DNA from: Candidatus Omnitrophota bacterium
GTDB taxonomy: Bacteria > Omnitrophota > Gorgyraeia > Zapsychrales > JANLHA01
Reading direction: 5' to 3'
NCBI GenBank assembly: GCA_029560465.1
Contig: JAKQKX010000069.1
Location: 6,447-70,446 of the forward strand
Length of the DNA stretch: 64,000 nucleotides
In this document: piece by piece, positions 36,665-49,003 of the stretch
How the letters are laid out: each line of letters starts with the position of its first letter
How positions within the stretch are numbered: the first letter of the stretch is position 1
Position numbers and translations under genes: made by a program
Notes under the pieces: generated by a model
Databases searched by the model: none
The model's input: the letters and a program-made list of their open reading frames with translations, nothing else
What the model was told of the DNA's origin: nothing

Positions 36665-36709
36665 CTCATAACCTGAAGGTCCTAGGTTCAAATCCTAGCC
36701 CCGCAACCA
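36665..36709 (+). other. att-type repeat: 3' fragment of a tRNA gene (anticodon loop to CCA), initiator-tRNA-Met-like
   Basis: CTCATAACCTGAAGGTCCTAGGTTCAAATCCTAGCCCCGCAACCA. Perfect T-arm CTAGG-TTCAAAT-CCTAG and a CAU anticodon loop. Compare E. coli tRNA-fMet ...CTCATAACCCGAAGGTCGTCGGTTCAAATCCGGCCCCCGCAACCA. No matching 5' half lies upstream. Confidence 0.6.
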
Positions 36710-37032
36710 ATATAAACCCCTGTTTCTCGTCGAGGAACGGGGGTTTTGTTTTGTCATTTTCCGGACCTTCATTCTTGATGAATTTTGACCAATTAGGCCC
36801 TATTTTGATGAAAAGTTGGCACGTATATGGCACATATTTGGCACACCAAAATCCCCCCCCAAGAGACTCCTTATCACAGTTTGAAATAAAGTGACTTGAG
36901 ATCGTTTATCAGCGCTCCACTGAGCGCATAAGAATGCGATTCGCAGGGCCCGCTGAGAAATACTTTGGTAATATAAAATGATGGTGTTACAATATGTAAC
37001 ACTTCGGAATAATCCCCCGAAAGGAAAAAATA

Positions 37033-37155
37033 TGCCCCGAAAAGAAGTTGTTACAGCAGAAGAAGTCGCTAAGTATTTAAGAATACATCCATATACAGTC
37101 AGACGATTAGCCCGGGAAGGAAAACTCCCGGGCTTTAAAGTTGGTGGGCAATAGA
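37033..37155 (+). pseudogene. Excisionase-family HTH gene remnant (frameshift plus in-frame TAG)
   Basis: From the ATG it reads MPRKEVVTAEEVAKYL and then shifts frame. The +1 frame continues RIHPYTVRRLAREGKLPGFKVGGQ-TAG-RFKKEEID. Confidence 0.5.
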
Positions 37156-37200
37156 GGTTTAAAAAAGAAGAAATCGATAACCCGAAGGACACAAAATAAT

Positions 37201-37548
37201 ATGACTGAAATCAAAGCGATCACTGAGAAAATCAAGAAATTTCGCGATGAACGAGATTGGAAACAATTTCACAATCATAAGGATATGGCTTTGTCAATGA
37301 TGCTAGAAGCGGCTGAGGTTTTGGAGCATTTCCAATGGAAATCACCATCCGAAGTCGAAGTCCATGGGCAAGCATGCAAAGATGAGATTTCAGAAGAGCT
37401 TGCTGATGTTGCTATGTATTTATTTGAACTCGCAGATAATCTTGGCATTGATCTGTCAGAAGCGATTCTCTCTAAATTAAAGAAAAATGCTCAGAAATAT
37501 CCGGTTGAGAAGGCCAAAGGTAAACATACAAAATACGATAAGTTATGA
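37201..37548 (+). CDS. MazG-like nucleotide pyrophosphohydrolase (small all-alpha NTP-PPase)
   Basis: 115 aa. EExxE-type motif MLEAAEVLEHFQWK and a second acidic helix ELADVAMYLFELADNLGIDL. ATGA overlap with the downstream gene. Confidence 0.6.
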   Translation: MTEIKAITEKIKKFRDERDWKQFHNHKDMALSMMLEAAEVLEHFQWKSPSEVEVHGQACKDEISEELADVAMYLFELADNLGIDLSEAILSKLKKNAQKYPVEKAKGKHTKYDKL

Positions 37549-47286: not shown

Positions 47287-47568
47287 ATGGTTAAATCAGA
47301 AAAGTCGGATAACATTATGACAGTTCACATTGCTTCACAAATAAAAGATTTACGTAAAAAAATCGGTTTAACCCAAATCGAATTTGCTAAACGGGTCGGC
47401 GTGGGTTTGCGTTTTTTAAGGGAACTTGAACAGGGTAAGACCACTGTGAGGATGGATAAGCTCAGCCAAGTTTTGGAATTCCTGGGATATCATCTGGAAA
47501 TAAAAAAGAATGAGCCGCAATCAACAATTAAACATCCTAAAACGGATTTGATGGATACTGATCAATGA
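47287..47568 (+). CDS. hipB: XRE-family HTH protein, HipB-like
   Basis: IKDLRKKIGLTQIEFAKRVGVGLRFLRELEQGKTTVRMDKLSQVLEFLG. Its stop overlaps the next start. Confidence 0.6.
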   Translation: MVKSEKSDNIMTVHIASQIKDLRKKIGLTQIEFAKRVGVGLRFLRELEQGKTTVRMDKLSQVLEFLGYHLEIKKNEPQSTIKHPKTDLMDTDQ

Positions 47569-47894
47569 GTATGATGAGAAAAGCCAGTATTTTTTATAAT
47601 AATGAATTGGCGGGATATTTAACTGAAACCTCGGATGGGTATACTTTTCAGTATGAGTACGAATTTTTAAAGAAAAATATCCCAATCTCAATTTCTTTGC
47701 CGCCCAGACCAGAACCGTATCATTCAAAAGAGTTGTTCCCTTTTTTTAAGGGACTCTTGCCGGAAGGGTGGTATTTGAATATTGTCAGCGCGACACAGAA
47801 GATTGATCATAAAGATTATTTTGGACTTTTGATCGGGACTGCGAGCGTAGATACTATTGGCGCGGTTACCGTGGAGCTGTCCCAGTCGGCGTAA
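47565..47894 (+). CDS. hipS: HipS-like protein (stand-alone HipA N-terminal subdomain)
   Basis: 109 aa. It resembles the HipA_N coupling domain (VFYNNELAGYL...YTFQYEY...LPPRPEPY...FKGLLPEG). Confidence 0.6.
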   Translation: MSMMRKASIFYNNELAGYLTETSDGYTFQYEYEFLKKNIPISISLPPRPEPYHSKELFPFFKGLLPEGWYLNIVSATQKIDHKDYFGLLIGTASVDTIGAVTVELSQSA

Positions 47895-47910
47895 TATAGG
47901 GAAATTTCTC

Positions 47911-48774
47911 GTGAATGAAAAATTTCTTAAAGCAATGTTTAATTCCTCGAAGGTCCCGGTAATCGACTTCGGTTTGAGCGATATATTGCAACAGGCCCAG
48001 AAGTTAGTGGGGAAGCTGTCGATTTCAGGTGTGCAACCGAAATTATCCGTCAAGTTAGATAAAAAGCAAAACATGTTGATTGTCGTGAGTGAGGGCGGCG
48101 AATATATTCTAAAACCGCAAACGGCGACCTTTCCCCATATCCCGGAAAATGAGCAATGCTGTATGGATATTGCGCAAGAATTAGACATTGAGGTGCCGCT
48201 GCATTGCGTGATTCCTCTGAAAGATAAAAACCTTGCTTATGTGGTCAAAAGATTCGACAGAGAAAAGGGAAATAAGGTCCATCAGGAAGATTTTGCGCAG
48301 ATCCTTGAAGCCAATGATAAGTATCGAGGCTCGGTGGAGCAGATAGGAAGCAAGCTCAAGGAAATTTCAGCCGCCCCTGGCTATGACGCGCAACTTTTGT
48401 TTGAACGGGTTGTGCTGAATTTTGTTCTCGCCAATGGCGACGCCCACTTGAAAAATTATTCAATATCATACAAGGAAGATGGTATCCGTTTGACGCCGGC
48501 TTATGATATTGTGTGTTCACGACTTGCGATCCCAGACGAGCAAGAAGAGTCGGCAATAAACATCAACGGCAAAAAGAATCGCTTGTCGAGGGAAGATTTT
48601 GATAAATTGGCAGATTATTTGAATGTGCCTCTTAAGGTGCGTTATGAAAAGGTTGAAGGCAAATTAGAAGTTATGAAGAAGCGCATCAAAGCTTCCCGCT
48701 TCAGCAAGGCAGACCAGAATAAGTTCCTCGACATTATTAAAGAACGTTTGCGGCGGTTAGGATTATCTGAATAG
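47911..48774 (+). CDS. hipT: HipT-like Ser/Thr kinase (HipA C-terminal kinase core)
   Basis: ISGVQPKLSV (phosphate-binding loop), VKRFDRE, GDAHLKNYSISY catalytic motif, TPAYDIVCS. The start (GTG 47911 or ATG 47935) is uncertain. The track ORF 47857 overlaps hipS. Confidence 0.7.
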   Translation: MNEKFLKAMFNSSKVPVIDFGLSDILQQAQKLVGKLSISGVQPKLSVKLDKKQNMLIVVSEGGEYILKPQTATFPHIPENEQCCMDIAQELDIEVPLHCVIPLKDKNLAYVVKRFDREKGNKVHQEDFAQILEANDKYRGSVEQIGSKLKEISAAPGYDAQLLFERVVLNFVLANGDAHLKNYSISYKEDGIRLTPAYDIVCSRLAIPDEQEESAININGKKNRLSREDFDKLADYLNVPLKVRYEKVEGKLEVMKKRIKASRFSKADQNKFLDIIKERLRRLGLSE

Positions 48775-49003
48775 GGGCAGTAAATGATGCAGGGGAACAG
48801 ATAATTCGTATCAACATCATCTGAGGAAGCGGGCTTTTTGTTGTCAAAACATCTTTCTCAGAAATGTCTCATTTTATATCAATTTTGATTAATTTTTATG
48901 CCTTTCGATCTGCAGTTGGCACAAATTTGGCAAAACGAATGGGGGCAAGTTATCTTGGGGAATGCAAAATTCTTGAAATAGGAAAAATTTTTCAAAAATA
49001 TTG

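Follow-up and report, generated by a model that had tools for sequence, protein, structure and literature searches.

Probable tandem accretion of site-specific elements in the 3' half of an initiator tRNA gene of a Candidatus Omnitrophota bacterium

How does a bacterial genome come to carry several 3' pieces of an initiator tRNA gene in a row, with unrelated genes between them? This question is raised by a stretch of 64,000 nucleotides (hereafter the window, numbered from its first letter) of a Candidatus Omnitrophota bacterium (GenBank assembly GCA_029560465.1, contig JAKQKX010000069.1, positions 6,447 to 70,446 of the forward strand). A sequence-only reading, made without database searches, had noticed such pieces of a tRNA-fMet-like gene and proposed serial integration at one tRNA-fMet attachment site (attB). 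This proposal has come out of our analysis as the best-supported reading, on the grounds of an integrase and conjugation module upstream, the layout of a homologous element (locus L012), an intact tRNA gene with the same trailing block in a related genome (L031), the T-stem variants of the pieces, and relatives free of the islands. We consider it very probable that site-specific elements have accreted in tandem here, within the 3' half of the tRNA-fMet gene: a putative integrative and conjugative element (ICE), followed by islands resembling cis-mobilizable elements (CIMEs).

tRNA-fMet fragments and their flanking repeats

The three fragments, W1, W2, and W3 (Table 1), correspond to positions 32-77, 34-77, and 58-77 of E. 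coli tRNA-fMet, respectively, and end in the same acceptor sequence, CCCCGCA-A-CCA. This end, CCCCGCAACCA, occurs exactly three times on the plus strand of the window; with up to one mismatch, five matches were found against 0.99 expected, a number reached by no shuffle. W1 and W2, which both include the anticodon loop with a CAU anticodon, are 91% identical over 45 nt. Neither ARAGORN nor Rfam detected an intact tRNA in the window, and Rfam returned nothing for 36000-49500 at the gathering threshold or at E values up to 1, because partial tRNAs such as W1-W3 escape detection. Further fragment copies were not found in the window by BLAST or with an nhmmer profile. The earlier description of three plus-strand fragments with a common acceptor end, two of them with a CAU anticodon, and of a window lacking an intact tRNA was accurate, and two of the borders had to be redrawn: W3, given as 31 nt, is really 20 nt long (45640-45649 has no tRNA match), and the base preceding TCATAACC at the start of W2 is T, not the C that had been noted. 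W3 is either a truncated core or a core of the T-loop type; it may be merely an anticodon-loop core truncated at its 5' end, because the homologous context in the Omnitrophota metagenome-assembled genome (MAG) L015 has the long form.

An intact counterpart was found in a related Omnitrophota genome, on the 3.36-Mb contig L031, where enolase and ftsB genes are followed by an intact tRNA-fMet gene (8444-8520, with C1xA72), a block-type trailer, and a MazG/helicase/HNH cassette. Chimeras of the 5' half of this tRNA with W1 or W2 give a perfect initiator cloverleaf with the C1xA72 mismatch and the CAU anticodon. The T stems vary by compensatory change (CTAGG/CCTAG in W1, ACAGG/CCTGT in W2 and L012, CTTGG/CCAAG in L031, and ATCGG/CCGGT in L015), which argues that W1, W2, and their counterparts derive from different functional versions of the tRNA and not from the decay of one gene. 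The three consecutive G:C pairs of the anticodon stem, a hallmark of initiator tRNAs, are absent from W1, W2, and the L031 tRNA, in which pair 29:41 is A:U and G:C is found only at 30:40 and 31:39. This A29:U41 variant is common, since the same CCTGA strand is present in more than 120 copies of the tRNA on viral contigs in IMG/VR.

A homologous block had been claimed to follow every fragment, which is true of W1 and W3 (blocks 1 and 3) but not of W2, whose trailer is another terminator (43738-43770) and other sequence; the claim of a fourth copy with only the downstream block was borne out by block 4, which has neither the core nor the 5' half of the terminator and abuts the conserved backbone beginning at ~48977. 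The block consists of a terminator, an AT-rich stretch, and then AGTTGGCAC, and the homology among the blocks ends at the end of this repeat array. Block 3 is 84% identical to the L031 trailer, in which three TGGCAC units, likewise at 11-bp phase, are located 118 nt past the tRNA. Direct repeats in helical phase are thus found on both sides of the cores, three TGGCAC units at +108 from W1 and two at -81 from W2, the latter pair coming right after a pseudogene of an Xis-like protein. Because the repeats also occur upstream of W2 and phased repeats are enriched in the flanks of viral contigs (see below), the block is best read as the terminator plus P' arm of an attachment site of the element (attP), with TGGCAC as putative arm-type integrase sites. 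Scanning metagenomes for the block pattern gave contigs of the same strain and no others.

Two other interpretations of the TGGCAC motif were set aside. An HspR operator or native hspR promoter (TTGGCAC) is at odds with relatives that keep the hspR promoter and the TTAGCACTC inverted repeat without having the block. TGGCAC-N5-TGGCA also resembles the -24/-12 elements of a sigma-54 promoter, but the motif stands in 11-bp-phase triplets on both sides of cores, and other att sites bear unrelated 6-mers in the same phased layout.

The same arrangement was seen in a sample of at least 120 IMG/VR viral contigs that carry the same 43-mer of the tRNA 3' end, where 95 of 120 tRNA copies are fragments that lack the 5' half. 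Of the downstream flanks (30-230 nt), 62 of 107 (58%) contained an exact 6-mer recurring at an offset of 11, as did 49 of 79 upstream flanks (62%; 32-232 nt); among 1954 control windows, the share was 3.3%. The offset profile has a sharp maximum at 11, and both arms often contain the same 6-mer. In the provirus L158, an intact tRNA-fMet is followed by a terminator and then by TTTGGCACAAATTTGGCAC, an arm of the TGGCAC type. Scans of the viral contigs for the block itself, or for CCA with TGGCAC arms at 100-130 nt, gave nothing. Separately, TGGCAC repeated three times at 11-bp phase was found in more than 120 viral contigs (L032-L151) as arrays of 11-bp iterons (e.g., repeats of TTGGCACTCTG), none of them within 600 nt of a tRNA-fMet 3' end (CCCCGCAACCA).

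The putative ICE, the islands, and their order

The DNA upstream of W1 belongs to a putative ICE, which the earlier reading had not mentioned; it spans at least 43 kb, and its left end is beyond the window. Its type IV secretion part (20995-29486) belongs to a conjugation module with Pfam matches to TraC/P-loop_TraG, TrbI, CagX, and TraG-D_C, which is followed by a recombination module whose tyrosine integrase matches the Phage_integrase domain with an E value of 4.9e-26. The integrase family is large, with a best match of 86% identity and many near 50%; the relatives on viral contigs are only 23-28% identical and were uninformative. The order of HTH_17 gene, open reading frame (ORF), and integrase is also found in L012, L014, and L015, and that of int followed by AbiE is kept in L012, L013, L015, and L016.

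In the locus L012, the integrase is 66% identical and the HTH_17 protein shows 66% identity by tblastn. Its genes run HTH_17, a 93-aa ORF, int, AbiEi/AbiEii, and one ORF, followed by GGATAC x2 and a tRNA-fMet fragment; the GGATAC pair, at 11-bp phase, is 147 nt upstream of the fragment, and the GGTACC pair of the window is likewise exactly 147 nt upstream of W1. The L012 fragment shares its starting position in the tRNA with W1 and its sequence with W2, the next 5 nt included. In L014, with an integrase of 53% identity, GGATAAC x2 is located at -137 from a tRNA-fMet fragment. L012 and L014 support W1, with its P-arm repeat, as the likely attR of the ICE; the W1 core would at the same time serve island B as attL. 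Since L012 has the same layout of int, AbiE, phased repeat, and fragment, W1 is best taken as the attR of the ICE, and AbiE as ICE cargo.

In L014 (14196-14286), the tRNA-fMet fragment is split by ~44 nt in the T arm and followed by a W1-like terminator and CACGGTA x2 at 11-bp phase. In L015 (4726-6600, minus strand), a degraded tRNA-fMet fragment with a block-like trailer is followed by HipBST genes, with a HipT 61% identical to that of the window; this HipBST unit has the opposite orientation to an integrase-AbiE module that an IS3 element interrupts.

To the right of W1, three islands (B, C, and D) can be delimited. Island B (36664-43733) is bounded by W1 with the P' arm on one side and, on the other, by the P arm with W2, its putative attR core; it has a complete split attP, reconstructed as ~270 bp, and no integrase by Pfam or tblastn. 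From its sequence, it is a CIME-like element, with att sites at both ends and the genes for recombination and transfer lost. Pfam and tblastn found no integrase anywhere between 36665 and 48940, for which reason the earlier description of the region as a graveyard of defence and toxin-antitoxin genes is apt. As for the genes said to lie between the copies, MazG/DUF2075, DUF4143, Fic, and HipBST were confirmed there, the HNH label of island B is a weak match, and AbiE is upstream of W1. The G+C content is 36-42% over most of the array, rising to 44-46% at 41-44 kb, and mostly 46-55% in the backbone.

These data suggest how the array may have arisen. The attP of every incoming element would have comprised a P arm bearing two arm-type repeats at 11-bp phase, the tRNA segment that extends from the anticodon loop to CCA, a terminator of the element's own, and a P' arm bearing two or three phased repeats. 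A tyrosine integrase would recombine this attP with the tRNA gene, in the segment from the anticodon loop to the 3' end, so that a functional tRNA is rebuilt at the left from the element's copy and terminator, while the previous 3' segment is displaced to the right. Successive integrations would push older elements rightward, giving, from left to right, the ICE (with W1 as attR and a P arm of the GGTACC type), island B, island C, island D, and a coreless relic of a P' arm. Island C would have been gutted by insertion sequences (ISs), and the coreless relic would have become fused to the hspR-hsp20 backbone. Later deletion and IS activity would have removed the integrases of islands B-D, once active, and the core of the last boundary. 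The intact tRNA gene would now be found over 43 kb upstream. Since the ICE-type arm (GGTACC) is present at W1 alone, the integrase of the ICE probably cannot excise the downstream islands.

Table 1. Features of the tRNA-fMet array and the putative ICE, in coordinates of the window.
Feature	Position	Strand	Description	Basis
MADS-like genes	mad5 1603-3000; mad6 2994-7136; mad7 7139-8830		mad6 with NERD and double-kinase; also an 1816-aa protein with mad8-like C-terminus	
Conjugation module	19966-29486	+	Replic_Relax-like, VirB4/TraC-like ATPase, TrbL/VirB6-like, TraE/VirB8-like, CagX/VirB9-like, TrbI/VirB10-like, coupling protein	Pfam
Recombination module	29512-31251	+	HTH_17 gene 29512-29670; conserved 92-aa ORF 29741-30019; tyrosine integrase 30016-31251	Pfam
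ICE right-end cargo	31328-36495	+	second HTH_17, DUF6941, DUF3800, AbiEi-like/AbiEii (34962-36495)	Pfam
IS3-family insertion in ICE cargo	33511-34565	minus		
P-arm repeat of putative ICE attR	36517-36533	+	GGTACC x2, 11-bp phase, 147 nt upstream of W1 core	
W1, tRNA-fMet 3' fragment	36664-36709	+	46 nt, anticodon loop to CCA; GCTCATAACCTGAAGGTCCTAGGTTCAAATCCTAGCCCCGCAACCA, starting GCTCATAACC and ending CCCCGCAACCA	
Block 1	36710-36850	+	terminator 36714-36746; TGGCAC x3 at 36817, 36828, 36839 (108 nt past W1)	
Island B cargo	36978-43210	+	truncated HTH_17, MazG-like/SLFN-g3 (DUF2075) helicase-S24/HNH-like cassette, DUF6933-PRiA4, DUF4143 ATPase	Pfam, PADLOC
MazG-like/helicase/HNH-like cassette	37174-40664	+		
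HTH_17 (Xis-like) pseudogene, island B right end	43395-43605	+	frameshifted; 59% over 34 aa to L012 HTH_17	tblastn; frameshift in three-frame translation
Island B putative P-arm repeat	43609-43625	+	TGGCAC x2, 11-bp phase, 81 nt upstream of W2	
W2, tRNA-fMet 3' fragment	43690-43733	+	44 nt; TCATAACCTGAAGGTCACAGGTTCAAATCCTGTCCCCGCAACCA, starting TCATAACC and ending CCCCGCAACCA	
Island C remnant	43734-45513	+	terminator 43738-43770; Fic-HTH_17 protein 44470-45513 (SoFic-like)	
IS3-family transposase fragment, island C	43818-44075	minus	C-terminal fragment	
W3, tRNA-fMet 3' fragment	45650-45669	+	20 nt, T loop to CCA; AAATCCTGTCCCCGCAACCA	
Block 3	45670-45800	+	terminator and putative P' arm, cut after first TGGCAC (45785-45790)	
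Island D cargo	45987-48774	+	ankyrin-repeat protein 45987-47102; HipB/HipS/HipT 47287-48774	Pfam
Block 4	48817-48934	+	coreless; 3' half of terminator only, then TGGCAC and TGGCAA	

Among the cargo genes of island B, DUF6933-PRiA4 and the DUF4143 ATPase (41990-43210) were labeled by PADLOC as PDC-S63 and PDC-S01, respectively. Four 15-nt units (TGTAGATTTGTGCAT and variants) with 22-bp spacing, resembling an operator array, are located directly upstream of the DUF4143 ATPase gene (41868-41948). The MazG-like/helicase/HNH-like cassette is 89.7% identical at the nucleotide level to L031 9635-13117, and the homology stops exactly at the cassette borders. Because only 82% identity is seen between the Hsp20 proteins of the two genomes and the homology is confined to the cassette, these sequences suggest that the cassette is a three-gene defence module that was recently exchanged. 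A conserved junction of Fic, core, block, and HipBST was also considered and rejected: HipT is orthologous to the L015 copy (61%), but the Fic proteins are alike only in the Fic core motif.

The putative ICE also carries, as cargo, a cluster resembling methylation-associated defence (MADS) systems in window 1-14277, extending 2.9 kb further upstream in L001, in which the PADLOC models mad5-mad8 match at 1603-14277 and are preceded by an N6 methylase; there are two N6 methylases, one of which is upstream of the window in L001. A 38-nt hairpin (AAAGCCATCCCAGATCTGGCT..GGGGTGGCTTTTTGT) is present at 18873-18910 and at 19892-19929 with 95% identity, flanking a SpoVG-like ORF. In metagenome JGI 3300010355, two contigs of the same strain break off at ~29800 and ~35800 and leave the stretch from the integrase to AbiEi unassembled, possibly owing to the IS3 copy or to population heterogeneity there.

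To the right of the array, block 4 is followed by a MerR/HspR-like gene, three hsp20 genes, pta, ack, and a giant GH5 protein. Between the MerR/HspR-like gene and the hsp20 genes is an inverted repeat, ATTGGCACTC-N9-GAGTGCCAAT (49371-49401), with counterparts in L026 (TTAGCACTC and GAGTGCTA, 9820-9850) and in L025 (TTAGCACTC and GACTGCCA, 9830-9860). Judging from its sequence and place, it is probably an HspR-type operator, bearing no relation to the att arms. Within 54182-56151, a complete acetate kinase gene precedes a truncated paralogue whose match to the family is confined to the C-terminal portion.

Weighing of rival explanations

Comparison with related strains had been suggested as a check, and it favours integration. 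L026-L030 share the hspR-hsp20-ack-GH5-MTS backbone and have other genes upstream of it (the right flank was compared); homology to L026 starts at window 48977, and the islands, as well as the block upstream of hspR, are absent from these distant relatives. Several observations weigh against a tandem accretion of integrated elements. In the sister strain (98.9% nucleotide identity), the array is identical, and no polymorphism or empty site was seen. An intact tRNA-fMet was not found upstream, in window 1-36663 or in the next 6.4 kb (2.9 kb added by L001 and 6.4 kb by L005), so that the attL of the ICE is unseen. The candidate relaxase is weak, with a Replic_Relax score of 24.3 bits under the Pfam cut-off of 25.3 bits (L012 shows a similarly weak match). 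A matching integrase for the TGGCAC arms was found nowhere, and it is conceivable that the block is a native, conserved trailer of the tRNA gene.

It is also conceivable that the whole array was acquired en bloc, as one composite of the ICE and previously accreted islands that arrived by conjugation and integrated a single time. CIME-ICE tandems are documented to move by conjugation (PMC5704250), the array is identical in a strain 1% diverged, and the G+C content is low across most of it. We nevertheless hold a single acquisition to be unlikely, though the least so of the rivals: a P arm of the ICE type (GGTACC) is present only at W1, and the arms at W2 are of the TGGCAC type, so that no matching arm is available further to the right, where block 4, instead of being a clean attR, is a truncated remnant joined to the backbone. 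Moreover, such a history alters the place of accretion, not the nature of the structure.

The second rival holds that the block is the native trailer of tRNA-fMet, and that the additional copies of fragment and block arose through composite elements that captured host flank, or by segmental duplication. In its favour, the block of L031 is directly 3' of an intact chromosomal tRNA with no integrase or second core within 14 kb, block 4 directly abuts the backbone, and the terminator and phased repeat of L014 also adjoin apparent host genes. On this reading, only some of the boundaries would be real integration events. However, three copies in one genome with 61-84% identity cannot all be native; the TGGCAC repeat is also found upstream of W2, on the other side of the core; viral contigs with the core show the same layout of terminator and phased repeat, the motif often being on both arms; and the homology of the block stops exactly at the repeat array. 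We regard a native trailer of this kind as improbable.

Several initiator tRNA genes at one locus are known in some bacteria (e.g., metZWV of E. coli), yet we give practically no credence to the fragments being decayed pseudogenes of a former tandem tRNA-fMet cluster unrelated to integration, for their 5' boundaries are at the anticodon loop, as in L012, L015, and most of the 95 viral fragments with upstream bases listed, their T stems stay perfectly paired by compensatory changes, and 2-7 kb of foreign cargo of low G+C content with att arms lies between the copies.

Returning to serial integration at the tRNA-fMet gene, the islands are possibly not dead, because the split attP of island B is still complete, with a TGGCAC arm on either side. 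The integrase-less islands could be satellite-like defence cassettes that are excised and re-integrated in trans by an integrase of the TGGCAC type, supplied by the genome or by an incoming element, although we think this rather unlikely. Such mobilisation is conceivable because this arm type also follows tRNA-fMet in unrelated proviruses, and a recent exchange of the MazG-helicase-HNH cassette fits its 89.7% identity between two species. If this were true, the tRNA-fMet locus would be an exchangeable rack of defence systems.

Relation to known systems and significance

In the Int/Xis system of phage lambda, attP has arm-type integrase sites around the core. The putative attP described here resembles it in having two arms of ~100-150 bp around the core, with two (P) and three (P') short phased direct repeats, and an Xis-like HTH gene next to the P arm of island B. 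It differs from the lambda site in that the 3'-terminal 44-46 nt of a tRNA form the core and the P' arm starts with a terminator that would serve the rebuilt tRNA; the role of the arm sites here is predicted from sequence.

Tandem accretion of ICEs or integrative and mobilizable elements (IMEs) with CIMEs was described for ICESt1/ICESt3 of Streptococcus thermophilus (reviewed in PMC5704250). As in that case, a functional-looking ICE stands beside att-bearing elements without genes for integration or transfer, at the 3' end of one target, with direct repeats of the att core. Unlike in S. thermophilus, the target is an initiator tRNA gene, in Omnitrophota, and the arm repeats of the islands (TGGCAC) differ from those of the ICE (GGTACC), which makes cis-mobilisation by the ICE integrase doubtful.

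Initiator tRNA genes are known as island sites from metV, which carries PAI-metV in E. coli CFT073 (PMC2907695), and tRNA genes are hot spots for islands in Klebsiella, as shown for its Asn tRNA genes (tDNAs; PMC4891358). The locus resembles PAI-metV in that an initiator tRNA gene is a recurrent insertion site of islands, with direct repeats of its 3' end. In contrast to PAI-metV and the Klebsiella islands, it belongs to another phylum and involves other integrases, its cargo is defence and toxin-antitoxin genes instead of type VI secretion system or virulence genes, and three fragments and a fourth, coreless boundary have been kept within 12 kb. As to the point of entry, Williams, in Nucleic Acids Research in 2002, reportedly sorted tRNA integration sites into sublocation classes, the anticodon loop and the T loop being the classical crossovers; W1, W2, L012, L014, and L015 start in the anticodon loop, and W3 in the T loop.

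This is a textbook route of genomic island accumulation, with no new mechanism. It is, however, a clean and well-delimited case, in Candidatus Omnitrophota, of islands accreting at a tRNA gene; most knowledge of this phylum comes from metagenomes, and a full-text literature search found no paper on its conjugative elements. The cargo comprises the MADS-like cluster, AbiE, the helicase cassette, PDC-S01, SoFic, and HipBST. In the sampled viral contigs with the tRNA segment, where the tRNA-fMet target is widely used, the arms are built in the same way. The analysis provides usable definitions of the att sites, consisting of a core, a terminator, and 11-bp-phased putative arm repeats that appear to co-vary with the integrase, and these definitions could serve to delimit elements borne by tRNA-fMet genes, together with their defence cargo, in metagenomes.

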